From the NCBI GenBank assembly GCA_948467545.1, contig CAOKER010000003.1:103500-167499 (forward strand): a stretch of 64,000 nt of DNA. Direction: 5' to 3'. The translations under genes and the position numbers were made by a program. The DNA is from an uncultured Eubacteriales bacterium. Its GTDB lineage: Bacteria; Bacillota; Clostridia; Oscillospirales; CAG-272. The notes beneath the pieces were generated by a model. The model saw only the letters and a list, made by a program, of their open reading frames with translations. It was not told where the DNA came from and did not search any database. Below, piece by piece: positions 41,263 to 63,326 of the stretch (within the stretch, counting starts at the first letter, position 1; the number at the start of each line of letters is the position of its first letter).

Positions 41263-41263
41263 A

Positions 41264-41458
41264 ATGGCAAAAATAGAATGGATACTTTGTCCTGTTTGTG
41301 GCAATAAAACTCGTAATCAAATCAGGGAAGATACTGTTCTTTTGAATTTTCCCTTATACTGTCCGAAGTGTAAACAAGAAACATTGATTGAAGCAAAAAA
41401 ATTTCAAGTAACGGTCATTGAAGATATTGATAAAAAGCGGGGGAATAAAGCAGAATGA
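41264..41458 (+). CDS. Cysteine-rich zinc-ribbon protein (Cys-rich KTR-type)
   Basis: CPVCGNKTRNQIREDT...LYCPKCKQET: two CxxC pairs with the KTR signature. Confidence 0.6.
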   Translation: MAKIEWILCPVCGNKTRNQIREDTVLLNFPLYCPKCKQETLIEAKKFQVTVIEDIDKKRGNKAE

Positions 41459-41652
41459 ATAAGATAAAAACAATTTTTATGGCATCGACATTAGAAGTAC
41501 TATTAGTGCTTTGCGTCGGCATTGCAAATTTACTTATTAAACCGATATACTATTTCTGCTTCTATAATGTCCTGTATGGTATATTGTTTAGCTTTTTAAT
41601 CCCCCTTGTAGTCTTTATTGTACTTGTGAGAGCGAATAGAAAAGAAAGGTAA
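41455..41652 (+). CDS. Small two-TM membrane protein
   Basis: ATGA start-stop overlap with the previous gene; two hydrophobic helices. Confidence 0.45.
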   Translation: MNKIKTIFMASTLEVLLVLCVGIANLLIKPIYYFCFYNVLYGILFSFLIPLVVFIVLVRANRKER

Positions 41653-41663
41653 AAACAACGCTT

Positions 41664-42302
41664 ATGGATGAAAAATTATATCGTGAACTTGGTCAACTGA
41701 CAAAGGATAAATCTATTTGGAAACAAAATATCCCCTATGTAGCTTCTTTGCTTAAAAATCAATCTCCTAAAATAACGGCTAAAGCAATGTGGCTGCTTGG
41801 AGAGATGGGATTGGTATATCCGCAGGAAGTCGCACCATATACAAAAGAAATTGCTTCTTTTATCGTTTCGGAAAATGACTTACTAAGAGAGCGTACCGCT
41901 AATGCTTTAGGACGAATTGGCAGAGCAGATTACAACCTTGTTGCCCCTTATTTTGAGGAACTATTAACCTTGGCAGGAGATAAAAGCCCTAATGTACGGT
42001 TAAGTTTTATATGGGCTTCTGAAAACATTGCGACAAATACATGGGCGGTGTATGAGAATTGTTTGCCGATATTTGCAGAGCTTCTTAACGATGAAAACGA
42101 AAGGGTCCGCATGGAAGCACCAGAGATGTTTCGGGTGTTAGGAAAACGAAAGCCCGAATTTGTGCGACCATATTTAGAAAAATTGGAATATATAGCAACG
42201 CACGATGAGGTTAGCGTAGTTCGTATTCACGCCAAAGGAGCAATTAGAGCCACATTATCCAAAACCATCAAAGAGCCAGACGCTAAGACGCAGAGCCGAT
42301 GA
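41664..42302 (+). CDS. HEAT-repeat protein
   Basis: Repeated helical pairs with D/E..VR.....LG pattern (NDLLRERTANALGRIG, SPNVRLSFIWASENI, NERVRMEAPEMFRVLG, EVSVVRIHAKGAI). Confidence 0.55.
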   Translation: MDEKLYRELGQLTKDKSIWKQNIPYVASLLKNQSPKITAKAMWLLGEMGLVYPQEVAPYTKEIASFIVSENDLLRERTANALGRIGRADYNLVAPYFEELLTLAGDKSPNVRLSFIWASENIATNTWAVYENCLPIFAELLNDENERVRMEAPEMFRVLGKRKPEFVRPYLEKLEYIATHDEVSVVRIHAKGAIRATLSKTIKEPDAKTQSR

Positions 42303-42306
42303 ACAA
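42267..42306 (+). repeat. Direct repeat copy 1 (covers the last codons and stop of the HEAT-repeat gene)
   Basis: ATCAAAGAGCCAGACGCTAAGACGCAGAGCCGATGAACAA; matches 43068-43108 apart from a 1-nt indel. Confidence 0.85.
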
Positions 42307-42446
42307 ATTTCTGGCTATTCGGCTTAATTACAGTTTTCATGTTCCACTTTGCTGCCAGAAGTACAAGCATGAAATATTGATTGAAGAAAAAAACAGTCTT
42401 GGAAAATCCAGACAAGTAAACTATTGTATGAAATGGAGAAAACAGT

Positions 42447-43055
42447 ATGGACTACAAGGAAACACATATCAGCTTTTTATATAACGATTTAATAAAAGAA
42501 TATGGAAGTGAACAGGGTAAACGGCTTTATGCCCTAATGTGCAAAAAGTTTGCTAATCTATGTGAAAAAGAAATGAAATCCGAAAACCATGCGATAAATG
42601 AGCATGTATTTGAAAGACTGTTACCAACGATAAGTATGTATTTAACCCTTATAGAAAATGATTTTACGCAAGAAGAAGCACTTAGGATAACTCATAAGGA
42701 AATACAGCACCATGCAAGCAATATGGCAGAAGAAAATGCCAAACTTAAAAAAATGCCCTTTACATACGGTTTATTTAAGATATTTGCAAAATCACATATG
42801 AAGAAAAAGTATCCAATCGAGGGCTTTACCGTGGAATGGAAAAGACATGATTATAAAGAAATCCATTTTGACATAGTTCGCTGCATTTACAAAGAGATGT
42901 GTGAAAAATATCATTGTTCCGAATTATGTGCGGTTTTCTGTCAAAGCGATATAACTGCCTTTTCAGGATATAGACCCAAGATTAGATTTGAAAGGTCAGG
43001 GACAATCGGGGAAGGAGCTAATTGTTGTGATTTCCATTTTATTCGTGGAAATTAA
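42447..43055 (+). CDS. Cys-rich protein, possibly of the L-2-amino-thiazoline-4-carboxylic acid hydrolase-like family (tentative)
   Basis: 202-aa ORF with C-terminal CAVFCQSD and CCDFHF motifs; family assignment from memory only. Confidence 0.4.
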   Translation: MDYKETHISFLYNDLIKEYGSEQGKRLYALMCKKFANLCEKEMKSENHAINEHVFERLLPTISMYLTLIENDFTQEEALRITHKEIQHHASNMAEENAKLKKMPFTYGLFKIFAKSHMKKKYPIEGFTVEWKRHDYKEIHFDIVRCIYKEMCEKYHCSELCAVFCQSDITAFSGYRPKIRFERSGTIGEGANCCDFHFIRGN

Positions 43056-43067
43056 AAAATAAAAAAT

Positions 43068-43108
43068 ATCAAAGAGCCAGACGCATAAGACGCAGAGCCG
43101 ATGAACAA
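43068..43108 (+). repeat. Direct repeat copy 2 (non-coding), running into a terminator hairpin
   Basis: ATCAAAGAGCCAGACGCATAAGACGCAGAGCCGATGAACAA. Confidence 0.85.
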
Positions 43109-51602: not shown

Positions 51603-53363
51603 TTGGCTGATATAAAGACAAAGGATTCTGTCAAGGGTGCGATTAAGACGATTGACAAAGCCGCCGTTGCCGCCGACCGTATGCGTAAAGCTTATATCCA
51701 AACCAAAGAAAAGGCGGAGCATTCCACAAGCGCAGCCGAAGCCAATGCGGAAGAATATGCTTCCGACCGCATTGAGGGTGGTATAGACCGTGCTTCCCAC
51801 GAAGCAGCCTATCAGTTTGACAAACAGGGGCGCAAAGGCGTAGAAGCGACAAAGCAGAATATTTCCAAAGCAAAGGACGGGATTCAGAGGTTTAAGGAAA
51901 AACAGGTGGAGGAATCATTAAAAAAGCAGGCGGTACAGAACAGGCGTGTCAGACCTGACTCGTCTGCTTTTTCTGCTGTCCGAAGCAGAAGTGAAAAAGC
52001 GGCGGCTCAAACGCAAAAGTCGGTGAAACAATCTGCCCGTTCTTCGGGAAGAAAAACCATAAAAACGGTAAGCAGGAGTTCGGCTAAGACAGCGCAGAAA
52101 TCTGTTAAGACCGCAGAGCAGACCGCTAAGACAGCCATAAAAACGAGTAAGCAGGCGGCAAAAACCGCACAGCAAACGGCGAAGGCTTCCGCAAAGGCGG
52201 CACAGAAAGCGGCTCAGGCAGCGAGAGAGACTGCAAAAGCAGTTGCCGCCGGGGTAAAAGCGGCGGTAAAGGCTACGATTGCAACCGTGAAAGCAATCAT
52301 AGCGGGAACAAAGGCTTTGATTGCGGCGATTGCCGCAGGCGGCTGGATAGCGGTTGCCGTAATTATTGTGATTTGCCTGATTGCCCTCTTGCTCAGTTCC
52401 GTATTTGGGATATTCTTTTCCGGCGAGGACGCAGGCACAGGTATGAGTATGCAGACGGTCGTGCAGGAAATCAATGCGGATTATGACGCACAGCTACAGG
52501 CAGAAAAAGACGCAGTATCCTACGATGTTCTTGAAATGAGTGGAAGCAGAGCCGTATGGAAAGATGTTCTTGCGGTTTATGCGGTCAAAACAAATACCGA
52601 TAAGGATAACCCGCAGGAGGTTGCCACGATGGACGATTCCAAAAAGCAAATCCTAAAGGATATTTTTTGGGAGATGAACGCCATATCCTCACGAACGGAA
52701 AGCAAGACCGAAACGGAGATTACCGAAACGGATGACGGACACGGGAATATCGTACAGACCGAAACAACCGTTACGAGAACTTATCTGTATATAACGGTAT
52801 CGCACAAGACGGTTGATGAAATGGCGGAACAGTACGGATTTAATCAGGAGCAGAAGGACTACCTTGCCGAATTGCTGGAGGATGAAAATAATTCCCTATG
52901 GTCGGCGGTATTGTACGGTGTTTCTTACAGCGATGACCAAATCGTAACGGTGGCATTATCTCAGGTAGGCAATGTAGGCGGCGAGCCATATTGGAGTTGG
53001 TACGGCTTCAATTCCCGTGTGGAGTGGTGCGCCTGCTTTGTTTCTTGGTGCGCTAACGAGTGCGGTTATATTGATACCGGAGTTATCCCGAAATATGCAG
53101 GCTGCGTTAATGGCGTGCAATGGTTTAAAGACAGAGGACAATGGATAGACGGTTCTACCGAGCCTGCGCCCGGTATGATTATCTTTTTCGATTGGGACGA
53201 TGAAGGCGGACAGGACGGAGAATCCGACCATACAGGTATCGTTGAGAAAGTGGAAAACGGTGTTGTTTATACGGTCGAGGGTAATTCCGGCGATAGCTGT
53301 AAAATCAATCAGTACAGCGTGGGGCATTACGAAATACTTGGATATGGAGTGCCTGCTTATTAA
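51603..53363 (+). CDS. Conjugation-associated cell-wall hydrolase (CHAP domain, Tn916 Orf14-like)
   Basis: TTG start after GGAGGTGA; Ala/Lys-rich coiled region, TM segment, C-terminal CHAP motifs EWCACFVSW (Cys) and SDHTGIV (His). Confidence 0.85.
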   Translation: MADIKTKDSVKGAIKTIDKAAVAADRMRKAYIQTKEKAEHSTSAAEANAEEYASDRIEGGIDRASHEAAYQFDKQGRKGVEATKQNISKAKDGIQRFKEKQVEESLKKQAVQNRRVRPDSSAFSAVRSRSEKAAAQTQKSVKQSARSSGRKTIKTVSRSSAKTAQKSVKTAEQTAKTAIKTSKQAAKTAQQTAKASAKAAQKAAQAARETAKAVAAGVKAAVKATIATVKAIIAGTKALIAAIAAGGWIAVAVIIVICLIALLLSSVFGIFFSGEDAGTGMSMQTVVQEINADYDAQLQAEKDAVSYDVLEMSGSRAVWKDVLAVYAVKTNTDKDNPQEVATMDDSKKQILKDIFWEMNAISSRTESKTETEITETDDGHGNIVQTETTVTRTYLYITVSHKTVDEMAEQYGFNQEQKDYLAELLEDENNSLWSAVLYGVSYSDDQIVTVALSQVGNVGGEPYWSWYGFNSRVEWCACFVSWCANECGYIDTGVIPKYAGCVNGVQWFKDRGQWIDGSTEPAPGMIIFFDWDDEGGQDGESDHTGIVEKVENGVVYTVEGNSGDSCKINQYSVGHYEILGYGVPAY

Positions 53364-53445
53364 ACATAAAGAGATTGCCGTCAGAAATGGCGGCAATCTA
53401 AATACATAGAGTTATTACTTAAAATTCAATTTTCGATACTAACCC

Positions 53446-53498
53446 TTGACAAAACAGATTCAAAATTGTATAATCAATACATATACCCCTTAATGTAT
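53446..53498 (+). promoter_or_regulatory. Consensus promoter of csoR with downstream CsoR-type box
   Basis: TTGACA (53446-53451), 17-nt spacer, TATAAT (53469-53474); ATACCCCTTAATGTAT at 53483-53498. Confidence 0.7.
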
Positions 53499-53511
53499 TG
53501 GAGGCGTTAAA

Positions 53512-53787
53512 ATGAAGCAATGTATGGATTCAGACAACCTGCACCGCAGGCTGAAAAAGATTATAGGACAGGTACAGGCGATTGACCGTATGGTAGATGA
53601 AGATGTTCCCTGTGAAGATATTCTTGCACAGATAAATGCTGCAAAGTCGGCTTTACACGGATGTGGTAAAGTGGTTTTAGAGGGACATATTAAGCACTGT
53701 GTTCGTGACGGAATCGAACACGGTGACGCAGATAAAACGATTGAAAGCTTTACCAAAGCGGTTGAGCGTTTCTCAAATATGACTTAA
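53512..53787 (+). CDS. csoR: CsoR/RcnR-family metal-sensing repressor
   Basis: LHRRLKKIIGQVQAIDRMV; Cys-His-Cys ligand pattern (PCEDIL, LHGCG). Confidence 0.9.
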   Translation: MKQCMDSDNLHRRLKKIIGQVQAIDRMVDEDVPCEDILAQINAAKSALHGCGKVVLEGHIKHCVRDGIEHGDADKTIESFTKAVERFSNMT

Positions 53788-53850
53788 TTTTTTTCATATA
53801 AATCCGTTAAAAAAAGGCTGTAGCAAAATAGCCTCTCAGAAAAAATGCAC

Positions 53851-53886
53851 AAAAACTCTTGAAAAATAGGCTTTTCAAGAGTTTTT
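53851..53886. terminator. Bidirectional intrinsic terminator after csoR
   Basis: Perfect 15-bp stem AAAAACTCTTGAAAA/TTTTCAAGAGTTTTT. Confidence 0.75.
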
Positions 53887-53897
53887 CTTTGTTTTAT

Positions 53898-53955
53898 GGG
53901 GATGTAGTAAATTGCTGTTTGTAAACAATTTCGCTGCATCCCCTTAATTTTTTTT
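53898..53955 (+). terminator. Second long hairpin terminator
   Basis: GGGGATG...CATCCCC outer stem with inner AAATTG/CAATTT, followed by TTAATTTTTTTT. Confidence 0.6.
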
Positions 53956-53964
53956 GAAAACCTC

Positions 53965-54018
53965 TTGACAACCCATACCCCTATGTGTATAATAATATAC
54001 GGATACCCCTTATGGTAT
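53965..54018 (+). promoter_or_regulatory. Consensus promoter of the P-type ATPase-feo operon carrying two CsoR-type boxes
   Basis: TTGACA (53965-53970), 17-nt spacer, TATAAT (53988-53993). ATACCCCTATGTGTAT (53975-53990) overlaps the spacer and -10; ATACCCCTTATGGTAT (54003-54018) lies just downstream. Confidence 0.7.
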
Positions 54019-54037
54019 ATGCGAAAGGAGGAGTTCT

Positions 54038-55924
54038 GTGAAAAAGCTAATGGGAAAGTTAGAGCAACTTCTGGAGTTTGGAGGTACAAAGAAAGACATC
54101 ACTTTGCTCGTCATTTCCGGCATTGCCTTAATCATCAGCTTATTTGATTTATTGCCTTTGCCGTTTAATGCTGCATGGGTAGCAATTATTCTATGCGGTG
54201 TTCCGATTATATTGGAGGCAATCATCGGTCTTGTGACGGCTTTTGACATCAAAGCCGCTGTGCTTGTTTCTCTTGCTTTGATTGCTTCCATATGGATCGG
54301 TGAAGATTTTGCCGCAGGAGAAGTTGCTTTTATTATGCAGCTTGGCGCATTGCTTGAAGATCTTACCGTTGCAAAGGCTCGTGCGGGCATTGAAAAGCTG
54401 GTGCATCTGACGCCGCAGACAGCAAGAGTAATAAACGGAGGAACAGAAAAAACAGTTGCTGCGGAACAGGTGAAAATAAACGATTTGCTTCGGGTGCTTC
54501 CCGGCGAAACCGTTCCAGTAGACGGAGTGATTACATCGGGACAGACTTCCGTTAATCAAGCCGTTATGACGGGCGAATCGCTCCCTGTTGACAAAACAGT
54601 AGGAGATGAAGTGTCAAGCGGTACGGTCAACCAATTCGGCGCTTTTGAGATGAAAGCAACAAAAGTAGGAGAGGACAGTTCCATTCAAAGAATGATCCGT
54701 CTTGTCAGGTCGGCAGACGCCGGCAAAGCAAAAATTGTCAGCATTGCCGACCGCTTTGCAACCTGGATTGTGGTCATTGCTCTGACTGCCGCAGCCTTAA
54801 CTTGGGCGTTTAGCGGGCAGATTATCCGTGCGGTTACGATTCTTGTTGTATTCTGTCCTTGTGCTTTGGTACTTGCGACGCCTACGGCGATTATGGCGGC
54901 AATCGGCAACGCTACCAAACACGGCTTTCTCGTCCGTGAGGGAGACGCTTTGGAACGGCTGGCGAAGGTATCGAAAATCACTTTTGATAAGACGGGGACG
55001 CTCACTTACGGCACACCGAAGGTAATCAAAACGCAAAGTGTATTGCCGAGCGTTTCGCAAGAAGAACTTTATGCTCTCTGTGCTTCTGCTGAACAATTAT
55101 CTGAACATCCGCTCGGCAAAGCAATTACCCGGTGCTATAAGCAGGAAACCGGAAGGAATATTTTACCCGCAGAAGGATTTAAAATGATTCCGGGACGAGG
55201 CGTTTCGGCTGTTGTAGATGAAAAGGCGGTTCTTGCAGGAAATCGTGAAATGCTTGCAGAGCAGAATATTGAAATATCGGGGGAAGTATCCTTACAGGCA
55301 GAAAAATATCTTATGCAGGGCTGCACGGTGATTTATGTCACAATCAATCAGGCGCTTGCGGGATATATCGTTCTCTCAGATACAGTGCGTGAGGAAAGCG
55401 CCGCAATGATAGACAATCTGACAAATCTGAATGTACAGCCTGTTTTGCTTACCGGAGATCACGAGAATGCAGCTACAGCAATCGCAAAACAATTACATAT
55501 CAAAGAAGTACACGCAGGCTGTCTGCCGGAGGATAAGCTGAACTGGATTTCTTCTTATCAGGAAAAGAAAGAAGCGGTTTGTATGATCGGCGATGGAATC
55601 AATGACGCACCGGCGCTGAAGGCGGCGAATGTGGGAATTGCTATGGGCGGAGTAGGCAGTGATATTGCGGTAGACGCAGCGGATATTGCCCTTGTTGATG
55701 ACGAGGTAAAGGAACTTCCTCACCTGATTGCCCTCTCCAAACGGATGATGACAACGATTAAGCTAAACCTGACTTTTTCAATGACGCTCAATTTTCTTGC
55801 CATTGCCCTTGCCATCACAGGAATATTAAATCCGGTTATCGGTGCTTTGGTGCATAATGCGGGATCTGTTGTTGTTATTATCAATTCTGCACTATTGTTA
55901 AAATGGAAAAGAAGAAAAGAATGA
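54038..55924 (+). CDS. Heavy-metal-translocating P1B-type ATPase without N-terminal metal-binding domain; metal specificity undetermined
   Basis: GTG start after AAAGGAGGAG; TGES, CPC (VFCPCALVLATP), DKTGTLT, TGDHENA, GDGINDAP. The last TM reads VHNAGSVVVIINS, which fits no subgroup cleanly. Confidence 0.88.
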   Translation: MKKLMGKLEQLLEFGGTKKDITLLVISGIALIISLFDLLPLPFNAAWVAIILCGVPIILEAIIGLVTAFDIKAAVLVSLALIASIWIGEDFAAGEVAFIMQLGALLEDLTVAKARAGIEKLVHLTPQTARVINGGTEKTVAAEQVKINDLLRVLPGETVPVDGVITSGQTSVNQAVMTGESLPVDKTVGDEVSSGTVNQFGAFEMKATKVGEDSSIQRMIRLVRSADAGKAKIVSIADRFATWIVVIALTAAALTWAFSGQIIRAVTILVVFCPCALVLATPTAIMAAIGNATKHGFLVREGDALERLAKVSKITFDKTGTLTYGTPKVIKTQSVLPSVSQEELYALCASAEQLSEHPLGKAITRCYKQETGRNILPAEGFKMIPGRGVSAVVDEKAVLAGNREMLAEQNIEISGEVSLQAEKYLMQGCTVIYVTINQALAGYIVLSDTVREESAAMIDNLTNLNVQPVLLTGDHENAATAIAKQLHIKEVHAGCLPEDKLNWISSYQEKKEAVCMIGDGINDAPALKAANVGIAMGGVGSDIAVDAADIALVDDEVKELPHLIALSKRMMTTIKLNLTFSMTLNFLAIALAITGILNPVIGALVHNAGSVVVIINSALLLKWKRRKE

Positions 55925-55958
55925 TGTTTAGGTAAAAAGAGTTAGAAGGAGGATGAAT

Positions 55959-56171
55959 ATGCTTTCTCTATCTTGTGTTCCTGTTGATACAGTACAGATA
56001 ATTAAATGGTACGCTGCAAGAGATTGCGATAAAATATCGTTTGAAAATATTGGATTGCTTCAAGGGGCAACTGTGAAAGTAGTCGCTTCTTATTTTGGCA
56101 ATGTGATTATTTCCGTAGGCGATATAAGGCTTGCATTAGGAAAAGACATAGCTGATAGAATTAAGGTTTAA
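55959..56171 (+). CDS. feoA: FeoA-domain protein (copy 1)
   Basis: SH3-like FeoA pattern ...GLLQGATVKVVASYFGNVIISVGDIRLALGKDIADRIKV. ATG 55959 lies 6 nt after AGGAGG. Confidence 0.75.
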   Translation: MLSLSCVPVDTVQIIKWYAARDCDKISFENIGLLQGATVKVVASYFGNVIISVGDIRLALGKDIADRIKV

Positions 56172-56220
56172 AAGAAAGATTTGGTTCGGGCGCATAGTCC
56201 GAACTAAATTTAAGACAAGT

Positions 56221-56238
56221 GGTTAGCAACTTCTAACC
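56221..56238. promoter_or_regulatory. Palindrome GGTTAG-N6-CTAACC between feoA copies (candidate DtxR-family site or RNA hairpin)
   Basis: The half-sites equal those of the DtxR/IdeR consensus (TTAGGTTAGCCTAACCTAA) but with a 6-nt instead of a 1-nt centre. Confidence 0.3.
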
Positions 56239-56269
56239 TGATTGTAGGATAAGATAAGGGGGATTTATT

Positions 56270-56482
56270 ATGATTCCACTTTTGCTGGCTCCTATTGGTA
56301 CGGAGCAAACGGTAAAAATGATTAAAGGAAATGACAGGACAAAAGCATTTATTGAAAAATTAGGATTTGTTGCAGGATCAAAGGTGACGGTAATCTCTGA
56401 ACACGGAGGAGATTTAATTGTCTTTGCAAAAGATGTTAGGATTGCCCTGAATCGGGAAACAGCAGCAAGAATTATGGTATAA
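56270..56482 (+). CDS. feoA: FeoA-domain protein (copy 2)
   Basis: LGFVAGSKVTVISEHGGDLIVFAKDVRIALNRETAARIMV. Confidence 0.8.
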   Translation: MIPLLLAPIGTEQTVKMIKGNDRTKAFIEKLGFVAGSKVTVISEHGGDLIVFAKDVRIALNRETAARIMV

Positions 56483-56529
56483 AGCCGGATGGCTCTATAT
56501 AAATACAATCAAATGAATGGAGGATTCAG

Positions 56530-56751
56530 ATGAAAACATTACGAGATGTTCCTGTTGGAGCAACGGTAAAAGTAATCCGGCTTCACGGAGAAGGCGCTAC
56601 AAAGCGGCGGATTATGGATATGGGCGTAACAAAAGGTGTGGATATCTTTGTACGTAAGGTTGCGCCGCTTGGCGATCCTGTACAGGTAACTGTTCGGGGA
56701 TATGAGCTTTCTGTTCGTAAGGCGGATGCTCAGATGATAGAAGTTGATTAA
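56530..56751 (+). CDS. feoA: FeoA-domain protein (copy 3)
   Basis: VGATVKVIRLHGEGATKRRIMDMGVTKGVDIFVRKVAPLGDPVQVTVRGYELSVRKADAQMIEV. Confidence 0.85.
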   Translation: MKTLRDVPVGATVKVIRLHGEGATKRRIMDMGVTKGVDIFVRKVAPLGDPVQVTVRGYELSVRKADAQMIEVD

Positions 56752-56766
56752 AGGAGGAAAAATGTA

Positions 56767-58911
56767 ATGGACAAATATACGCTTGCATTAGCCGGAAATC
56801 CGAATAGCGGTAAAACTACAATGTTTAACGCACTGACCGGCGCCGCACAGTTCGTCGGCAACTGGCCGGGCGTAACTGTTGAAAAGAAGGAAGGCAAGTA
56901 TAAAAAGAACAAGGAAGTTCGGATTATGGACTTACCCGGTATTTATTCGCTGTCTCCATATTCTCAGGAGGAAGTGGTAGCTCGTGAGTATTTGGTAAAT
57001 GAGCGTCCGGACGCTATTATTAACATTGTGGACGCAACCAATTTGGAAAGAAATCTCTATCTGACTACGCAGCTTTTGGAAATCGGAATTCCGGTAGTCA
57101 TTGCCTTGAATATGATGGATGTCGTAAGAAAAAGCGGCGATACGATACATACCGATGTGCTTTCTAAAATTTTAAGGTGTCCTGTTGTGGAGACTTCCGC
57201 ATTGAAAGAGGATAACCTTGATAAGGTTGTGCAGGAAGCAATCTCTGCTGCAAAAAAAGGTGAGACTCCGGCGTGTGTTCCTTTTGATAAGCAGACGGAA
57301 GGCTGGATTGCAGAAATACAAGAGAATTTGCCTGCCGATGTTCCGGCAGCACAGAAGCGTTATCTTTCTATTAAGCTGTTTGAGAAAGATTCCAAAGTTC
57401 CATATGTCAATGAGGCAATTTCAAAAATTGTCGCAGAGGCGGAAAAGACTCTCGATGATGATACAGAAAGCCATATTACCGGCGTACGCTACGAGTATAT
57501 TACAGGGATTATCAACAAGGTTCGTAAAAAACAATCCGGCAAGGTGTCTATCTCCGATAGAATTGACCGTATTGTAACAAATCGTTGGTTAGGCTTGCCG
57601 ATCTTTGCTCTTGTAATGCTTGTTGTTTACTATATTTCCGTTACTACTGTAGGAAGTTGGGTTACGGATTGGACAAATGATGTGTTTGTCGGAGAGTGGG
57701 TACAGGCTCCGGTTGAAACTTGGCTTACAGGTATTGGCTGTGCTGATTGGCTGACAGGGTTGATATGTGAGGGCATTATCGGCGGTGTAGGCGCTATGCT
57801 TGGATTTATGCCTCAGATGTTTATTCTGTTCTTCTTCCTTGCGCTTTTAGAGGATTGCGGATATATGGCTCGTATCGCATTTGTTATGGATCGTGTGTTC
57901 CGCAAATTTGGAATGTCAGGAAAATCCTTTATTCCTATGCTGATTGGAACAGGCTGTGGTCTGCCGGGCATTATGGCTGCCCGCACCATTGAAAATGAAA
58001 AAGACAGGCGAATGACAATTATGACCGTAACCTTTATGCCCTGCGGCGCAAAACTGCCGATGATAGCCTGCATTGCGGGAGCGTTGTTTAACAACAGCGG
58101 GTTTGTGGCATTTTCAGCGTATATGCTTGGTATAGTCAGCGTTATTGTTACAGGTATTATGCTGAAAAAGACAAAGAAATTTGCAGGTGAAGCAACGCCT
58201 TTCGTTATGGAACTTCCTGCATATCATATTCCAACCGTAAAGAATGTTTGGCACAGTATATGGGATCGCTTGAAAGCATTTGCAAAAAAGGCTGTTACCG
58301 TTTATATGCTGGCAAGTATTCTTGTATGGTTCATCTCCAGCTTTGGTTGGGTAGACGGTTCCTTTGGAATGGTTGAAATCGGAGACAGCATTGCTTATTC
58401 TATCGGCAACGCATTGGCTTGGCTGTTCGCTCCTTGCGGCTTTGATAAGTGGCAGGCAGTTATCGCTTCTATTCTCGGCATTGCGGCAAAGGAAGAGGTA
58501 GTTGGTACGCTCGGTGTATTCTCAGCGATAGGAGACGCAGATATGGCATTGGAGTTGGCAGAGTCCGGCGGAAACCTTGCGCCTATTGCAGCTTTATTTG
58601 GAGGAAGCGCTGTTGCCGGTTATGCGTTCCTTGCTTTCAACCTGTTATGCGCTCCTTGTTTTGCCGCAATCAATACAATTCGTGCAGAAATGCAGAGTGG
58701 AAAGTGGTCGGCGTTTGCCATTGGCTATCAGTGCGGATTTGCCTATCTTGTTTCTTTGATGATTTATCAATTCGGTAATCTTATTTTGGGCGGAGGATTT
58801 ACAATCTGGACTGCCGTTGCATTTGTAGTGTTGGCATTTTTCCTGTTTATGTTATTCCGCCCCGGCTATAAATCCTCGGAAACAAAATTAAAAGCTGCCG
58901 CTAAAGCATAA
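56767..58911 (+). CDS. feoB: Ferrous iron transporter FeoB
   Basis: G-domain GNPNSGKTTMFNALTG and DLPGIYSL, followed by polytopic gate/permease domains; 714 aa. Confidence 0.95.
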   Translation: MDKYTLALAGNPNSGKTTMFNALTGAAQFVGNWPGVTVEKKEGKYKKNKEVRIMDLPGIYSLSPYSQEEVVAREYLVNERPDAIINIVDATNLERNLYLTTQLLEIGIPVVIALNMMDVVRKSGDTIHTDVLSKILRCPVVETSALKEDNLDKVVQEAISAAKKGETPACVPFDKQTEGWIAEIQENLPADVPAAQKRYLSIKLFEKDSKVPYVNEAISKIVAEAEKTLDDDTESHITGVRYEYITGIINKVRKKQSGKVSISDRIDRIVTNRWLGLPIFALVMLVVYYISVTTVGSWVTDWTNDVFVGEWVQAPVETWLTGIGCADWLTGLICEGIIGGVGAMLGFMPQMFILFFFLALLEDCGYMARIAFVMDRVFRKFGMSGKSFIPMLIGTGCGLPGIMAARTIENEKDRRMTIMTVTFMPCGAKLPMIACIAGALFNNSGFVAFSAYMLGIVSVIVTGIMLKKTKKFAGEATPFVMELPAYHIPTVKNVWHSIWDRLKAFAKKAVTVYMLASILVWFISSFGWVDGSFGMVEIGDSIAYSIGNALAWLFAPCGFDKWQAVIASILGIAAKEEVVGTLGVFSAIGDADMALELAESGGNLAPIAALFGGSAVAGYAFLAFNLLCAPCFAAINTIRAEMQSGKWSAFAIGYQCGFAYLVSLMIYQFGNLILGGGFTIWTAVAFVVLAFFLFMLFRPGYKSSETKLKAAAKA

Positions 58912-58923
58912 AGAGGTATAGTT

Positions 58924-59103
58924 ATGTTGGGATGGATAACACAGAATCTTGCAACTATAATAATTGGAACTTTACTTCTCATTGCTGTCATTTTCGCTTT
59001 GTTAAGTATGGTGAAAACGAAAAAAGCAGGCGGCTGTAATTGTGGGTGTTCCGGGTGCAAAGGCTGTTCTCATTCCGGCACCTGTCATCATAGGGAATAT
59101 TGA
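58924..59103 (+). CDS. FeoB-associated Cys-rich membrane peptide (59 aa)
   Basis: ATG 58924 to TGA 59101-59103; one TM helix then GGCNCGCSGCKGCSHSGTCHH. Below the ORF-track length cutoff. Confidence 0.7.
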   Translation: MLGWITQNLATIIIGTLLLIAVIFALLSMVKTKKAGGCNCGCSGCKGCSHSGTCHHREY

Positions 59104-59211
59104 GTAAATCGCTGAAAATTCCTATATTACAGCTTGAGGCTATAAACAGCAGGCAGCCGAAACCATAAATTGGTTTGACTGCCTGTTTGCTTATTTTAGA
59201 AAGGAGCTAAT

Positions 59212-59622
59212 ATGACCGCCAAAAAAAGCACAAGTAACTTGTATTCTTCCGGTGAAGATTATCTGGAAGCAATTCAGATACTAATTGTAAAAAACGGTAA
59301 AACCCGTTCGTCTGAGGTGGCAGAATATATGGGCGTTACAAGACCGAGTGTATGTCGGGCAGTGCGTGTTCTTACCGAGGGCGGCTATTTGGTTATGGAC
59401 GAGGATTTTGGTCTGTTTTTAACGAAAAAAGGACAGGAAATTGCGGATAAAACTTATGAGAAGCATTGCTTTTTCAAACAGATGTTGATAGATGCCGGCA
59501 TAGATTCAATAAAGGCGGAACAGGAAGCCTGCGAGATGGAGCATAGTATTAGCGAGGATAGCTTTGAGAAGCTGCGTCAGGCAAAAATAGAATTGATGGG
59601 AAATCGACAAGGAGGTGCTTGA
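59212..59622 (+). CDS. DtxR/MntR-family metal-dependent transcriptional regulator
   Basis: SGEDYLEAIQIL...SSEVAEYMGVTRPSVCRAVRVLTEGGYL winged HTH; metal-site residues in EKHCFF...EACEMEHSIS. Confidence 0.85.
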   Translation: MTAKKSTSNLYSSGEDYLEAIQILIVKNGKTRSSEVAEYMGVTRPSVCRAVRVLTEGGYLVMDEDFGLFLTKKGQEIADKTYEKHCFFKQMLIDAGIDSIKAEQEACEMEHSISEDSFEKLRQAKIELMGNRQGGA

Positions 59623-59763
59623 TGAAAGGTTATAAAAGCGTTGGTCTGCCAAAGCAGCCTTCATTGATAATTCGTGATAAAAGAAAAACCAAGACTTGGA
59701 ATAATAAAAAATCACAGTTACCTACCGTCCGGAAGGAAATGGTAAGTAGGAAAGGGTTACGAA

Positions 59764-60012
59764 ATGATAAAAACGGTACTTATGATTGAGGGAATGTCTT
59801 GCGGAATGTGTGAAGCACATATAAATGAGACGATCCGTAGAAATTTCAAAGTAAAAAAGGTGAATTCATCTCATAAGAAAAATTTGACTGAGGTTGTTAG
59901 TGAAGAACCGTTAGATACACAGAGTTTGAAAGATGTGATTGGAGCGACAGGATATACTCTTGTATCAGTCTCGGAAAAAACATATACAAAAAAGAATATA
60001 TTTGGAAAATAA
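59764..60012 (+). CDS. Heavy-metal-associated (HMA, CopZ-like) domain protein
   Basis: MIEGMSCGMCEAHI MxCxxC motif in a ferredoxin-like fold length. Confidence 0.8.
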   Translation: MIKTVLMIEGMSCGMCEAHINETIRRNFKVKKVNSSHKKNLTEVVSEEPLDTQSLKDVIGATGYTLVSVSEKTYTKKNIFGK

Positions 60013-60038
60013 AACCCATTTGGATTTTATGTTGAACG

Positions 60039-60488
60039 GTGGGAGGCGATAGTATCGGAAGAATAATAATTATTGAGCTTTCAGATCAGGATTCCTCTGT
60101 CTTTGATGATATTTTGTCTTTTCTTAATCAGCACTCTGATTGGCAGCAGTATGATTTAAGTAAAGAACCGATATTATCGTTTCCCGGTCTTGAAATCAAT
60201 TTTGCCCGCCACAGGATTTATTGCAATCATCAAGAGGTTGAATTAACAACGAAGGAGTTTAATATCCTCTGTCTTTTGGCAGTAAACAAAGGTCGGGTGC
60301 TTACCCATTCACAGATTTATGAAAAGGCGTGGGATAATGAAGCGATTGGCAATGAGCGAAAGGCGGTGGGCTATCATATTTGGAATATCCGTAAGAAGCT
60401 CTACGCCGCAGCACCGGAACACAAATTTGCCATAGAGAGCGTTCGTGAGGTCGGATACCGATTTGAGGTCAACAATATGGATACATAA
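60039..60488 (+). CDS. OmpR/PhoB-type winged-helix DNA-binding protein lacking a receiver domain
   Basis: C-terminal ELTTKEFNILCLLAVNKGRVLTHSQIYEKAW...VGYRFEV. The N-terminal 50 aa are too short for a receiver. GTG start uncertain. Confidence 0.65.
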   Translation: MGGDSIGRIIIIELSDQDSSVFDDILSFLNQHSDWQQYDLSKEPILSFPGLEINFARHRIYCNHQEVELTTKEFNILCLLAVNKGRVLTHSQIYEKAWDNEAIGNERKAVGYHIWNIRKKLYAAAPEHKFAIESVREVGYRFEVNNMDT

Positions 60489-60518
60489 CGGCAGTCTGAA
60501 AAACAGGCTGCCGTTTTT
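60489..60518 (+). terminator. Intrinsic terminator ending the metal module
   Basis: 10-bp stem CGGCAGTCTG/CAGGCTGCCG (one G-U), AAAAA loop, TTTTT tail. Confidence 0.8.
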
Positions 60519-61160
60519 ATGCTCATTTGAGCTTCTTTTTGCAAACCTGATAATATCTTATTTTATATGACATTTCGATGCCGCATAATGTCTGAACTTG
60601 CGGCGAGACTTGACTAAAACAGATACAAAACAGTAAGAGTTCCAAAATTTATACATTATACTTCCCCTATCAACAAATGTACAGGGGAAAACTGAAACAG
60701 TCTGTCATCTTATCCCCTTTAAAGGGGACAAGATGGCAGATACAAGGACAGGGACAGGCGGAATACCGCCGACAGGAAACCAAAAATATTATTTCGTACA
60801 TACCGCAGTCTCTAAGGGGATTGCGGTGTTTTTTTATTCGACACCGTTCCTTTTATTCCTTTTACAATTCCTATTATGTTGCAGCAGTTTACAGCAAAGC
60901 GCACTCGTCTTGCGGCGGGTGCGCTTTTTGTCTGTCAGAAAAAGAAAATTCCTGCTGTGTAATAGCCTATTTTGTAACAGACAAGAAACGGCAGGGCGCT
61001 TTTATCGCATAAAACCGGACAAGCCTTTTTTCTTTGCTTATAAGAGTAAGCCTTTGCTTTTGAGCAGATGGCAGACCTTTATCGGGAGGTATCCGTAATC
61101 TCCGAATTTTTGATTTCAACCTTTTATATCAAAAATTCAAAATTTAAGGAGATTACGGAA

Positions 61161-61694
61161 ATGACGGAAAGCAATTTAGAAGTTCTGAAAGAGGAATTTC
61201 AAAACGAGTGCAAGGTTATCAATTTGCAGTATGAATATCAGGGATATAGCGGTAAAGAACAATGGGCGATTATTTCGGAACTGTCCGAAAAAGAAATCTT
61301 TGAAAAGTACAAGCTCTTTGTTCAGGATTACATACCGTTTCTTATATTACCGCCGATGTACGGAGAAGTGCGGCAGCAGTTTCGCAGAAACGAGAATAAA
61401 CACTATATGAGAATGGTCAGAGGTCATATTTATTCGCTGGAGGACGATTTGGAAGAACATCATCCGGAAGCTGCCGTAGAGGATTGTGCAGCGCAGGTCT
61501 TTGCAAAGGAACAAAGCAGAGAGCTTTGGGAAGCGATAAACTCTCTCAATGAAATACAAAGAAAACGGCTGATTGCCTATTACTTTGAGGGGAAAACCTA
61601 TCGGGAGATTGCTGATGAAGAAGGCGTCGATCATAAGGCGGTAGTCCGCAGCGTTGCCATTGCTTTGAAAAATCTGAGGATTTTCTTAGAATAG
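61161..61694 (+). CDS. Tn916 Orf7-like sigma-70 region-4 protein
   Basis: AAGGAG 9 nt before ATG 61161; LNEIQRKRLIAYYFEGKTYREIADEEGVDHKAVVRSVAIALKNLR. Confidence 0.75.
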   Translation: MTESNLEVLKEEFQNECKVINLQYEYQGYSGKEQWAIISELSEKEIFEKYKLFVQDYIPFLILPPMYGEVRQQFRRNENKHYMRMVRGHIYSLEDDLEEHHPEAAVEDCAAQVFAKEQSRELWEAINSLNEIQRKRLIAYYFEGKTYREIADEEGVDHKAVVRSVAIALKNLRIFLE

Positions 61695-61795: not shown

Positions 61796-62347
61796 ATGGA
61801 ACTCAAAGAAAATCAGAAGGTGAAGCGTGGGGAAATCTATCTGCACGACTTCGGAAGCAATGAAGGCTCGATACAGAATGGGATAAGACCTGTTCTTGTA
61901 GTGCAATGCGATGAAGGCAATCAGGCAAGCACAACCACCATTGTTGCGGCTCTTACATCTGTTATTAAAAAGCGCTATCTGCCCTCACATATTGTTTTGG
62001 GCGATAAATACGGACTGAAAGAGCCGTCAATGGTTATGCTTGAACAACTAAAAACGGTTAATCAGTCAGAGCTTGCCGAATATATCGGTTTTGTTGACAG
62101 CGAATATCTGCTCAGAAAAATCAATATCGGTTTGAAAAAGGCGCTTGGCTTGTGGGTGGATAAACCGCAGAAGCACAAGGGCGATATACGCTGCTTATGC
62201 AGCAAATGCTTGGAGGATTACAAAGCCAATCCCGATTATATCGTAAGGCGGCTTGATCCGTTTGCGAAAGAAAAGCGCAGATGTGATAAGTGTCTGAATA
62301 TGGGGTACGATTACCTGATTTACGATAAGAGTATTTCAAAGAGGTAA
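61796..62347 (+). CDS. PemK/MazF-like endoribonuclease domain fused to a C-terminal Cys-rich zinc-ribbon-like domain
   Basis: KRGEIYLHDFGSNEGSIQNGIRPVLVVQ and MVMLEQLKTVN MazF blocks (about 115 aa), then CLCSKC...CDKC (about 65 aa). Confidence 0.75.
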   Translation: MELKENQKVKRGEIYLHDFGSNEGSIQNGIRPVLVVQCDEGNQASTTTIVAALTSVIKKRYLPSHIVLGDKYGLKEPSMVMLEQLKTVNQSELAEYIGFVDSEYLLRKINIGLKKALGLWVDKPQKHKGDIRCLCSKCLEDYKANPDYIVRRLDPFAKEKRRCDKCLNMGYDYLIYDKSISKR

Positions 62348-62352: not shown

Positions 62353-62574
62353 ATGGCAGATACAAATACAACTACAAAGCCGTATGTACCCGTTTGGGAA
62401 AAATACGCTCTTACAATTTATGAAGCGGCAGAGTATTTCGGGATTGGGGAACATCGTCTGCGGACATTGGTAAGAGAGAACCGTCAGGCTGATTTTGTGC
62501 TGTGGATTGGAGTGAAGGTGGAAATCAAACGGAAGCTGTTTGAGGAATTTCTGAATGAAATAAATGCACTCTGA
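62353..62574 (+). CDS. xis: Tn916 Xis-like excisionase (HTH) paralog 1
   Basis: PVWEKYALTIYEAAEYFGIGEHRLRTLV...EIKRKLFEEFL parallels Tn916 Xis [28 protein letters not shown]. Confidence 0.8.
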   Translation: MADTNTTTKPYVPVWEKYALTIYEAAEYFGIGEHRLRTLVRENRQADFVLWIGVKVEIKRKLFEEFLNEINAL

Positions 62575-62680
62575 TGTCAAGTCTGCGATTGCCGACTTCG
62601 CATATTTGTCAAAAGGCTCGTGTCTGACTATGATTGGGAGGAAGGCACGAGCCGGACAAATACCAAAGGAGGACACCGCA

Positions 62681-63049
62681 ATGAAAAATTATGTATATGT
62701 TCCCGGTCTCAGCGAGGTCGTGGAGAACGAAAAGAAAAAAGAGCCGAGCAATACGGAAACTGATAAATTCGTTACGGTAACGGGTGCGGCTAAAAAAACT
62801 GTTGCCACACACGACAGAGGTGTTGTAAGAAATAAAAAGGTTGACGACCGCAGCTTTCAGATTCCGGTATGGGAGAAATACGCCCTGACAATCAAGGAAG
62901 CGGCAGAGTATTACAATGTAGCCGAAACCAAACTGCGGGAATTTGCAATGAGCAACCGTACCAAACCGTTCGTATTAAAAGCCGGAGGCAGGCTGTTGTT
63001 AAAACGCAAGGTCTTTGAAGCGTTCTTAGACCAAAATAATGTTATTTGA
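62681..63049 (+). CDS. Xis-like excisionase paralog 2 with about 70-aa N-terminal extension
   Basis: AAAGGAGG before ATG 62681; IPVWEKYALTIKEAAEYYNVAETKLREF...LLKRKVFEAFL. Confidence 0.75.
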   Translation: MKNYVYVPGLSEVVENEKKKEPSNTETDKFVTVTGAAKKTVATHDRGVVRNKKVDDRSFQIPVWEKYALTIKEAAEYYNVAETKLREFAMSNRTKPFVLKAGGRLLLKRKVFEAFLDQNNVI

Positions 63050-63062
63050 AAGGAGGGCGGCA

Positions 63063-63326
63063 ATGAACAGAAAAGGAAATCCGATGTTTCAGAAGGGTTA
63101 TCCAAATGCTGAAATGTGTAACAAAAGGCTGAGGGAACTGCCGATATGGGAAAAGCCGCTGCTGACGGTAGTTGAAGCGGCAAAGTATTTTCAAATCGGA
63201 GAGTCCAATATCAGGAGGCTTACAAGAGAGCATAAGGGCGAGGACTTTATACAATGGAAGGACAACCGTGTGTTTATCAGACGGGAGGAATTTGAGAAGT
63301 TCTTAGATCAGACAAACGCAATTTAA
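63063..63326 (+). CDS. Xis-like excisionase paralog 3
   Basis: AAAGGAGGG before ATG 63063; LPIWEKPLLTVVEAAKYFQIGESNIRRL...FIRREEFEKFL. Confidence 0.75.
   Translation: MNRKGNPMFQKGYPNAEMCNKRLRELPIWEKPLLTVVEAAKYFQIGESNIRRLTREHKGEDFIQWKDNRVFIRREEFEKFLDQTNAI

Follow-up and report, generated by a model that had tools for sequence, protein, structure and literature searches.

Why should one mobile element carry a gene for a metal-exporting ATPase and, immediately behind it, the genes of a ferrous-iron importer? The question is raised by a block of about 7 kb (positions 53446-60518) in a 64,000 nt stretch of contig CAOKER010000003.1 from an uncultured Eubacteriales bacterium (assembly GCA_948467545.1); this whole stretch is called the window here, and positions are counted from its first nucleotide. 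The block encodes a repressor of the CsoR family, a P1B-type ATPase (the pump), three FeoA proteins, FeoB, a FeoB-associated peptide, a DtxR-family repressor, a heavy-metal-associated (HMA) protein and a winged-helix protein (Table 1). Our favoured answer, to which we give about an even chance, is that a CsoR-derepressed efflux pump for a thiophilic metal has been fused, on an integrative and conjugative element (ICE), to a DtxR-gated Fe(II) importer. Genes were called from six-frame open reading frames (ORFs) with Pfam and NCBIfam profile searches, the two profile sets agreeing, and each was found where an initial annotation, made from the sequence without database searches, had placed it; that account had lacked the hairpin and palindrome between feoA1 and feoA2 and the U-tailed hairpin after the FeoB-associated gene.

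Both csoR and the pump gene are preceded by a perfect TTGACA-N17-TATAAT promoter (at 53446 and 53965); three such sites occur in the 64 kb, against 0.02 expected. The pattern ATACCCC-N5-GTAT is found three times in the window (53483, 53975 and 54003; 0 expected), each time at one of these two promoters. The csoR promoter has the single box ATACCCCTTAATGTAT at 53483-53498, and at the pump promoter one box (53975-53990) lies in the spacer and -10 element and another (54003-54018) directly downstream. The consensus, CsoR-boxed promoter claimed at the outset for the ATPase gene is thus borne out by a 12 of 12 match and a dual box, and the architecture is kept in at least 54 related loci, in which the consensus reads TTGACA-N4-ATACCCC(Y)AT-N-GGTATAAT, followed by the second box ATACCCCTATAGGTAT. 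As to the two terminators that had been described after csoR, the one at 53851-53886 is convincing and the one at 53815-53834 weak.

A scan of one genome per species produced 80 loci with pumps 74-80% identical to that of the window. In about 65 of them csoR (87-98% identical) lies directly upstream of the pump gene, mostly without feo, and the hosts belong to Lachnospiraceae, Oscillospiraceae, Ruminococcaceae and Clostridium; the 90%-identity cluster of CsoR itself counts 3038 member sequences. The csoR gene, the dual-operator promoter and the ATPase gene are therefore a widespread, self-contained module, and the nearest relatives of the window's pump (86-92% identity, loci L083-L087) are feo-less modules in unrelated chromosomal settings. 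An ORF of 58-65 aa with two transmembrane (TM) helices overlaps the pump stop codon in about 30 sampled loci (e.g. L084:9256-9432, L003, L010, L017 and L040), beginning MEKEE... or MEEK... and carrying the motif IIGxxIGxxxxxxGxYYLxKEKxDxESRKIY. It belongs to no Pfam family, and none of the small ORFs matched DUF6110, DUF1490, PacL or FezA in Pfam; by analogy with PacL and the small Fez proteins it may be a dedicated subunit of the pump. The window has no such gene, retaining a ten-codon relic of its start. Other metal ATPases cluster beside the csoR-pump pair in L042, L047, L065, L066 and L080.

The pump is a P1B-ATPase (TIGR01525, 571 bits against a cut-off of 346) with the motifs FCPCAL in TM4, LNF in TM5, VHNAGS in TM6 (GALVHNAGSV), DKTGT, TGES, SEHPLG and GDGINDAP, and no N-terminal metal-binding (HMA) domain was found in it by Pfam. 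The CPC of TM4 and the atypical VHNAGS of the last TM helix had both been noticed initially; they are invariant or nearly so among 80 homologues, with C273-P-C275, N585 and H606-N607 unchanged in sets of 37 and of 80. Aligned by spacing, N585 sits where ZntA has its TM5 Lys, and His606, at the same P-x6 distance, falls where CopA has Met717 and ZntA has Asp714. The helix count is about eight, according to an AlphaFold2 model of low confidence from a 37-sequence alignment (mean predicted local distance difference test score 64, predicted TM-score 0.38, TM4 and TM6 below 50) that was used for this count only, and according to the alignment with ZntA, which begins at residue 21. Among about 125 full-length nearest cluster representatives (35-61% identity), 84 combine CPC with HN, 22 with HQ and eight with HE, many having Cys/His-rich N-termini, and an SCA-type TM4 occurs in none of the 150 nearest.

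The Cu(I)/Ag(I) class P1B-1, in the scheme of Arguello 2003, is recognised by CPC, YN(x4)P in TM5, M(xx)SS in TM6 and usually an N-terminal HMA domain. The same signature is quoted in PMC13460109, and definitions of the other P1B subgroups were likewise drawn from citing papers. In these, P1B-6, with FezB, has D[Y/F]SCA in TM4, HNxxT in TM6 and six TM helices (bioRxiv 10.1101/2020.01.10.902569), and 'P1B6-like' denotes CPC in TM4 with HN in TM6, as in CtpC of M. tuberculosis, whose substrate is given as Zn by one study and as Mn by another (PMC9374683, PMC13460109). The window's pump shares CPC with P1B-1 and departs from it in LNF of TM5, in HNAGS of TM6 with its His606, and in the missing N-terminal HMA domain; the initial view that it is not a canonical Cu(I) pump is upheld by the absent TM5 and TM6 signature. 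It differs from P1B-2 (Zn/Cd/Pb; CPC, TM5 Lys, TM6 DxG) by Asn585 for the Lys and His606 for Asp714, and from P1B-4 (Co/Fe/Zn; SPC and HEGxT, as in CzcP, PfeT and sCoaT) by CPC and by HNAGS, in which the His is shared, Asn stands for Glu and Ser for Thr. P1B-6 proper was also rejected, the TM4 motif being VFCPCA, the HN motif ending in Ser and the helices numbering about eight, not six. Having CPC, an upstream TM5 Asn and HN, the pump is therefore 'P1B-6-like' (CtpC type, sensu Boudehen 2022), an assignment made by motif alone.

Overall similarity is uninformative on substrate. Among solved structures Cu pumps score 311-329 bits, ZntA 289 and the P1B-4 pump sCoaT (7qbz) 289; in a plasmid collection SilP-like proteins are 38-40% and CadA 34-36% identical, and the sole record above 60%, on a 243-kb Roseburia replicon, is an unannotated gene. 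With the remaining plasmid-borne pumps at no more than 41% identity, there is no useful named relative, and we found no characterised member of this pump family. Neither motif class nor similarity names a metal, in keeping with the initial caution that the metal cannot be assigned. We would put a divalent ion of the Zn/Cd/Co/Ni type at slightly less than an even chance, Cu(I) a little below that, and Fe or Mn as improbable.

The last of these bears on a role in Fe(II)/Co(II) efflux, which had been proposed to make the block a self-contained iron-homeostasis cassette. The pump would then move Fe(II), perhaps Co(II), out of the cell or into a storage compartment and so balance Feo, with the P1B-4 pumps PfeT and FrvA and the P1B-6 pump FezB as analogues and DtxR and the CsoR-like protein together setting an iron window. 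In its favour, TM6 has His at the metal position, with HN as in FezB, and P1B-4 pumps also have His there; fez clusters, too, often adjoin FeoA, FeoB and DtxR genes (bioRxiv 10.1101/2020.01.10.902569). The pump is repeatedly linked to feoA, feoB and dtxR, at some loci within an operon that dtxR heads and with translational coupling to feoA, and the HMA gene follows dtxR in the ATPase-free feo cassettes of L094 and L097. Against these points stand CPC rather than SPC or SCA in TM4, about eight helices rather than six, the absence of the SCA type among the 150 representatives and of a DUF6110/FezA-like partner in Pfam searches. The CsoR family has no known Fe sensor (PMC11672702), the sole characterised pump with CPC and HN, CtpC, handles Zn or Mn (PMC9374683), and about 85% of csoR-ATPase loci have no nearby iron gene. 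The motif class is P1B-6-like, not the Fe/Co class P1B-4, and most csoR-ATPase relatives are without iron genes nearby. Fe(II) is a minority reading, and we regard the iron cassette as improbable.

Plain copper resistance is a narrower version of the favoured reading and, in our view, possible though unlikely: the system would consist of CsoR, a Cu(I) exporter resembling CopA and an HMA chaperone resembling CopZ, feo having been inserted between pump and chaperone. The slightly higher scores of Cu pumps over Zn/Co pumps (311-329 against 289 bits) and of SilP-like proteins over CadA speak for it, as do the MxCxxC motif of the HMA protein and the resemblance of the operators to ATACCC-N4-GGGTAT. 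The pump itself argues otherwise, with LN for YN in TM5, His for CopA Met717 and no MxxSS in TM6, and relatives that often have Cys/His-rich N-termini and not HMA domains; moreover, the HMA gene travels with dtxR and feo in L094 and L097.

The repressor gives a similarly divided answer. The best solved relatives of the window's CsoR are the Cu(I) sensors SlCsoR and GtCsoR, followed by the Ni sensor InrS, and its best NCBIfam match is RicR; the Cu(I)-sensing relatives, the RicR match and the C-H-C core would suit copper. Across 63 distinct orthologues the X-Y-Z ligands C34, H59 and C63 are invariant, as are C4, H11, P33 and H62, and Glu78 is kept in 48 of the 63. Pro33 occupies the second-shell Tyr position, as in InrS, and Cys4 lies no more than two residues from the W position; since the first ATG lies 7 nt 3' of GGAGG, translation most likely includes Cys4. 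CsoRs that are genuine Cu(I) sensors have x-C-H-C ligands, no N-terminal W ligand and a near-invariant second-shell Tyr and Glu, and their neighbours are P1B-1 CopA and CopZ (PMC11672702). Compared with these, the window's CsoR shares the C-H-C core, has Pro in place of Tyr and a variable Glu, and adjoins a pump that is not P1B-1; these departures, and the invariant Cys4 near the W position, weigh against the copper explanation. So does the coexistence of the CPC/HN pair with a canonical csoR-copA pair, encoded on the other strand at a distance of a few kb, in L042 (3857-6182) and L047 (12387-14661). There the ATPase has 772 aa and an N-terminal HMA domain, and the CsoR is 36-41% identical to the window's, so these genomes hold two different CsoR-pump systems. 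Because a Cu(I)-like core goes together with Pro for Tyr, a variable Glu, an extra Cys and copA-csoR pairs alongside, the effector may be either of two kinds: judged from its sequence, Cu(I) is plausible and a four-coordinate divalent ion at least as plausible.

The second half of the block is a Feo transporter, as shown by the FeoB_N, FeoB_Cyto, two Gate and FeoB_C domains of FeoB (TIGR00437, cut-off 316 bits) and three FeoA proteins above the Pfam cut-off. About 40 clusters, at least 74% identical, make up the narrow clade of this FeoB, its next relatives being 60-67% identical. The repressor encoded behind it is of the DtxR/MntR type, with a winged helix-turn-helix (PF01325) and a dimerisation and metal domain (PF02742) and without an SH3 domain; in a gap-free alignment with B. 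subtilis MntR its D16, E19, H85, E110 and H111 correspond to D8, E11, H77, E102 and H103, and C107, a DtxR-type Cys, takes the place of MntR E99, equivalent to Cys102 of DtxR.

A control region of its own appears to precede feoA2. Here the palindrome GGTTAG-N6-CTAACC overlaps a weak promoter-like TTAAGA-N16-TCTAAC, and its core TTAG-N6-CTAA recurs before the first core feoA in L090, L094, L095, L097, L098, L067 and L075, with a variant in L092. In at least eight lineages it lies 20-90 nt 5' of that gene, usually behind a GC hairpin of unrelated sequence; a hairpin of other sequence stands at the place of the window's in L090, L092, L094, L097, L067, L075 and L098. The palindrome overlaps the -10 element of a TTGACA-17-TATACT promoter in L095, and in L094 and L097 hairpin and palindrome lie downstream of an independent TTGACA-17-TATAAA promoter. 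The dtxR-first loci have another copy of the palindrome directly upstream of the CsoR-boxed promoter. GGTTAG and CTAACC are the inner half-sites of the DtxR/IdeR box. The palindrome is probably the operator of the cassette's DtxR, and feo thus most likely has iron control separate from the pump promoter. The hairpin after feoA1 could act in attenuation, in RNA stabilisation or as a weak terminator; the idea that it simply terminates an ATPase-feoA1 unit is weakened by L094 and L097, where the equivalent hairpin stands in the feoA leader, downstream of a promoter. A second hairpin (59150-59185, with its U-rich tail 59150-59197), a probable terminator or attenuator between feo and dtxR, has a homologous GGCAGGC...GCCTGCC hairpin as its counterpart in the corresponding position of L094 and L097. 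The closest feo relative, L090, was seen to carry tandem repeats of about 50 nt in its feoA2-feoA3 and feoA3-feoB spacers (7430-8000), one family with GGTATACCC...GGGTA-like motifs and the other a unit containing a ribosome-binding site, repeated three times before feoB; in this locus a group II intron reverse transcriptase stands at the expected place of csoR.

Are the two halves, then, one transcription unit? The 34-nt spacer initially reported between the ATPase gene and feoA1 is correct with the feoA1 ATG at 55959, which lies 6 nt after AGGAGG and is also the start called in L001, and the spacer has no significant structure (z = 0.46). Co-transcription from a single CsoR promoter, as had been proposed, is thus supported as far as the boxed promoter and the lack of a terminator between the ATPase gene and feoA1 go. 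The further notion that the whole of feo depends on that promoter alone is unlikely, because hairpin and palindrome precede feoA2 in every sampled lineage of the feo cassette.

Comparison of loci indicated that the linkage of pump and feo is recurrent, partly independent in origin, assembled by recombination and not universal. Among the sampled contexts of the window's FeoB clade, the junction of L090 and L091 (pump-feoA1-A2-A3-feoB) is collinear with that of the window; L098 has csoR-pump, 325 nt and feoA-feoB; L037 and L041 have csoR-dtxR-pump-feoA-feoB, with or without a FeoB-associated gene and dtxR behind; L067 has csoR-dtxR-pump, a small ORF, three feoA genes and feoB; and in L073 and L075 the pump stop and feoA start codons overlap (ATGA). 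An unrelated feoB (39-41% identity) adjoins the pump in L043, L057, L064 and L069, and the pumps of feo-linked loci belong to different lineages. Pump-free contexts include feoA1-A2-A3-feoB (L092, L093), on which the idea of FeoA1 as a pump-specific partner was rejected, dtxR divergent from feoA-feoA-feoB (L095, L096) and feoA-feoB-dtxR-HMA (L097). In L094, also pump-free, a csoR relic and a CsoR-boxed promoter stand before dtxR-feoA-feoA-feoB, the FeoB-associated gene, dtxR and the HMA gene. In all, feo linkage was found in about 11 of 80 pump loci against some 1% expected per 16-kb neighbourhood, roughly ten-fold above chance by what is an estimate and not a formal test. The link recurs in several lineages of the ATPase, its junctions differ, and at two of these the stop and start codons overlap; it therefore looks selected, and at the level of gene neighbourhood the iron link of the pump is real. 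A relic ORF was noted after feoB in L067 (6300-6587), in which the TM5-TM6 end of an ATPase (LNFIAIALAITGILNPIVGALVHNAGSV) is fused to the C-terminal half of the two-TM protein, a scar which shows that the dtxR-ATPase-feo cassette took the place of most of an older csoR-ATPase module.

These data also bear on the explanation that the block is an accidental mosaic, in which pump and iron-uptake cassettes with separate regulation were joined by recombination and are co-selected as a 'metal island' without functional coupling, any read-through being noise. It accounts for the feo-less nearest relatives of the ATPase and for scars such as the relic start at 55903-55935, the fusion of ATPase 3' end and small TM protein in L067 and the csoR relic in L094. 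It would also account for the other metal ATPases beside the pair in five loci (L042, L047, L065, L066 and L080), for the feo cassette standing alone in L092, L095 and L097, and for the operator-like palindrome that this cassette has of its own. It is at odds with an association that recurs across several lineages of the ATPase and extends to unrelated feoB lineages, at a frequency well over the rough 1%, with the overlapping codons of L073 and L075, and with the sharing of one promoter region by palindrome and CsoR boxes in dtxR-first loci. On this balance we think it rather unlikely, ranking it just below plain copper resistance.

Several observations nevertheless count against the favoured fusion of metal-inducible efflux with iron-gated import. 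Only two of the six contexts sampled by FeoB carry the ATPase, the closest ATPase relatives (L083-L087) are without feo, and a lost small partner has left its relic at the window's junction; the joint may therefore be a recent product of recombination and not a designed operon. At the hairpin after feoA1 most transcripts could end, or none at all. A regular-expression scan for the palindrome over 1.05 Mb of loci gave nine matches, where shuffled sequence gave 1.5, and a single one of the nine lay outside the positions described, a count that is descriptive only since the pattern was derived from the same data. The C-H-C core of CsoR, the boxes, which resemble the Cu(I) type, and the HMA protein all point to Cu(I), and the metal signals conflict, in that the pump is without the Cu(I) signature in TM5 and TM6 and the CsoR lacks the Tyr and has an N-terminal Cys (PMC11672702). 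We know of no DtxR-family operator with a 6-nt spacer.

On the favoured reading, the block is a mosaic of two cassettes that travel together repeatedly in gut Clostridia. Gene content, the conservation of operators and promoters, the recurrent linkage and the motif class are observed; the structure of the transcripts, the pairing of DtxR with the palindrome, the metal and the physiological rationale are inferred. The first, made up of csoR, the dual-operator promoter and the CPC...HN P1B-6-like ATPase, would provide metal-inducible efflux: apo-CsoR would occupy one box at its own promoter and two at that of the pump, and binding of the cognate thiophilic metal would release it from the DNA and allow the pump to be made. 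The second comprises the three feoA genes, feoB and the gene for the FeoB-associated peptide, followed by those for the DtxR/MntR-type repressor and the small HMA protein. Its Feo proteins would import Fe(II), and Fe(II)-loaded DtxR on the palindrome would block both local initiation and read-through. The ATPase gene and feoA1 would thus be transcribed from the CsoR-controlled promoter, at least into feoA1, and feoA2, feoA3 and feoB would additionally need low iron. A toxic metal would be expelled and Fe(II) imported once iron becomes limiting, as when thiophilic metals attack the Fe-S enzymes of anaerobes. Such metals poison Fe-S enzymes, and efflux of a toxic metal together with iron resupply would for this reason be co-selected.

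The remaining genes of the block differ in their ties to metal. Genes for homologues of the HMA protein (50-55% identity) stand behind dtxR in L094 and L097 and behind the pump in L065, and L084 has one at 6 kb from its pump; the protein belongs to the metal gene set. The small basic ORF behind dtxR matches nothing in Pfam; its start, MKGYK(S/N)VG..KQPS, is conserved over the first 15 or so codons in DNA and protein (L067, L071, L092 and L093), and the ORF recurs at varying module junctions, after dtxR, the ATPase gene or the FeoB-associated gene (L067:2809-2997, L071 at about 6190, L092 at about 10418). Other ICEs have homologues of the winged-helix protein (42-54% identity) beside their CHAP, VirB4, PrgI and TrbL genes, frequently as arrays and with no metal genes, so the protein is of an ICE-associated family and probably not part of the metal system. 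The initial count of four metal-related regulators or chaperones was accordingly one too high. In L107, L113 and L123 (e.g. L113:216-9760), two to four paralogous receiver-less OmpR-type winged-helix genes were seen next to CHAP in other ICEs.

The description of the block as ICE cargo holds, with conjugation genes upstream and Xis and integrase genes downstream. On the 5' side lie genes for TrbL, PrgI, VirB4, an AAA_14/DUF4143 protein, a sortase and a CHAP hydrolase; on the 3' side follow a sigma-70 region-4 protein, PemK, three Tn916-Xis paralogues and a Tn916-type integrase. VirB4, PrgI, TrbL, a hydrolase, Xis and a tyrosine integrase (which runs off the window), with the cargo between them, identify the element as Tn916/Tn1549-type, and the block is accessory cargo of such an ICE in a gut Clostridium. 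Flanked by conjugation and excision modules, it therefore lies in the accessory-gene slot of this ICE family, which we take to be the position of tet(M) in Tn916 and vanB in Tn1549. Strong terminators had been said to bracket the block; this is true of the downstream edge, and the upstream edge (53372-53399) has a stable hairpin without a U tract at which a terminator scan made no call. An identical copy of the block occurs on L001, a 143-kb metagenomic scaffold. Searched for by exact match, the CHAP and PemK proteins led back to the same element only, with no sister ICE of other cargo by which to define the insertion edges, and an Rfam scan of 53000-61200 yielded sub-threshold chance matches and no riboswitch or known RNA.

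Table 1. Features of the metal block and its edges, with window coordinates; a point in the strand column marks a feature given without a strand.
Feature	Coordinates	Strand	Evidence
Hairpin at the upstream edge, after the ICE CHAP/NlpC-type gene	53372..53399	+	12-bp stem, -20.7 kcal/mol, z = -6.6
csoR promoter with one CsoR box	53446..53498	+	TTGACA-N17-TATAAT, 12/12
csoR, CsoR/RcnR-family repressor, 91 aa	53512..53787	+	Pfam PF02583 Trns_repr_metal, E = 1.8e-26
Weak hairpin (53815-53834), then strong bidirectional terminator (53851-53886), after csoR	53815..53886	.	Terminator scan, folding
ATPase promoter (12/12) with two CsoR boxes	53965..54018	+	Sequence match; conserved in relatives
P1B-type ATPase, 628 aa	54038..55924	+	Pfam E1-E2_ATPase and Hydrolase; NCBIfam
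Relic start (MEKKKRMMFR*) of small two-TM partner gene	55903..55935	+	Comparison with ORFs of relatives
feoA1, divergent FeoA	55959..56171 (55953 alternative start)	+	Pfam FeoA, E = 6e-8
15-bp hairpin directly 3' of feoA1	56177..56211	+	Folding; equivalents in relatives
Palindrome GGTTAG-N6-CTAACC, candidate DtxR-type operator	56221..56238	.	Sole exact match in window
feoA2	56270..56482	+	Pfam FeoA, E = 2e-10
feoA3	56530..56751	+	Pfam FeoA, E = 1e-19
feoB, 714 aa, Fe(II) permease/GTPase	56767..58911	+	TIGR00437, 565 bits
FeoB-associated Cys-rich membrane peptide	58924..59103	+	PF12669, E = 7e-13
Hairpin (59150-59185) with U-rich tail before dtxR	59144..59197	+	Folding; homologue in L094, L097
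DtxR/MntR-family two-domain repressor, 136 aa	59212..59622	+	Pfam Fe_dep_repress and Fe_dep_repr_C
Small basic ORF, 55 aa, MKGYKSVGLPKQPS...	59622..59789	+	Conserved start
HMA protein, 82 aa, GMSCGMC motif	59764..60012	+	PF00403
Receiver-less OmpR-type winged-helix protein	60039..60488	+	PF00486 (Trans_reg_C) alone
Strong intrinsic terminator at the downstream edge	60487..60515	+	12-bp stem and U tract

Elsewhere in the element, three strong plus-strand intrinsic terminators (60487, 60800 and 60896) lie within 440 nt (60487-60927) of sequence that separates the cargo from the sigma-factor gene and holds no convincing gene. A PemK-type toxin gene (61796-62347) stands directly 5' of the Xis array, whose three tandem Tn916-Xis/HTH_17 paralogues (62353-63326) precede the integrase truncated by the window end. 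Farther left are genes for ParB, a thioester/SpaA adhesin and an SNF2 protein, and a segment of low GC content inside the ICE (39000-43100; 0.35-0.40 against about 0.47 around it), with small ORFs that include a HEAT-like protein and ATC_hydrolase, is probably a second accessory insertion. Chromosomal lysS lies at 21621-23198, and greA-lysS (21042-23198; L094:4331-6406) stands directly 5' both of the window's ICE and of the distinct mobile element of L094, which has Mob_Pre, primase and DUF5906 genes and carries the feo-dtxR-HMA cassette; this suggests that greA-lysS is an integration hot spot shared by the two.

All components being of known kinds, nothing here is categorically new. What is new is an uncharacterised pump subgroup, an atypical CsoR and a small two-TM partner, the recurrent fusion of pump and Feo, and its carriage on an ICE. 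The csoR-ATPase pair is very common in gut Clostridia, and its TM motif class has one studied member, CtpC, with a substrate disputed between Zn and Mn. The ICE-borne fusion shows horizontal movement of such modules in the gut, for which copper and zinc in diet and feed would be plausible selective agents. More speculatively, and with little probability, the clostridial CPC/HN pumps may be a distinct P1B subgroup with its own two-TM subunit and a new C-C-H-C sensor of CsoR type, whose repeated fusion to one FeoB clade would reflect a true import/export pair acting on one ion pool. The pump would in that case be an overflow or storage pump for Fe(II), or an exporter proof-reading non-iron cations admitted by Feo, and the ICE would spread a complete, self-regulating unit of metal homeostasis among gut bacteria. 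The dual CsoR boxes, the feo palindrome and the two-TM partner are directly testable for metal specificity and regulation.

Known systems resemble the block in part. As in ICEs of the Tn916/Tn1549 family, it follows an NlpC/P60-CHAP gene and precedes sigma factor, Xis and Int, the last two being of Tn916 type; unlike theirs, the cargo is metal homeostasis and not antibiotic resistance, and the element is further distinguished by three Xis paralogues, a gene for a PemK toxin and one for a receiver-less winged-helix protein of an ICE-associated family. With the csoR-copZA, csoR-copA-copZ and M. tuberculosis cso operons it shares a C-H-C repressor, palindromic operators with GC tracts over the pump promoter, a small HMA protein in the neighbourhood and, given the box at the csoR promoter, likely autoregulation. 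It differs from these copper operons in a pump that is not P1B-1, in a CsoR with Pro for Tyr and an invariant N-terminal Cys, and in the separate transcription of csoR, with a terminator between it and the pump.

FezB has HN in TM6 and no classical N-terminal HMA domain, as does the window's pump, and its neighbourhoods are likewise rich in FeoA, FeoB and DtxR genes, with an HMA-domain protein nearby (FezC in D. magneticus; bioRxiv 10.1101/2020.01.10.902569). The window's pump differs in having CPC and not D[Y/F]SCA, a TM6 motif ending in Ser and not Thr, about eight TM helices and not six, and no R-rich N-terminus, and the window holds no GxxxG or FezA-type partner. CtpC is, like it, a P1B ATPase in which TM4 has CPC and TM6 a conserved HN (PMC9374683; PMC13460109), and works with PacL1, a small membrane protein of the same operon, much as many relatives of the window's pump are accompanied by the 58-65 aa two-TM ORF. 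In contrast to CtpC, the comparison being one of motifs, the N-to-H spacing is 20 (18 is quoted for CtpC), the regulator is of CsoR type and the hosts are Clostridia; the relatives' small partner is without a DUF1490, DUF6110 or other Pfam match and is gone from the window. Finally, as in FeoABC systems repressed by DtxR, IdeR or MntR, there are FeoA, FeoB (G1, G3, G4 and Gate), a Cys-rich peptide, a two-domain repressor and palindrome half-sites; here, unlike there, FeoA comes in three paralogues, the spacing of the half-sites is 6 nt instead of 1, the repressor gene lies 3' of feoB and is followed by the HMA gene, and the operon is fused behind an efflux pump.

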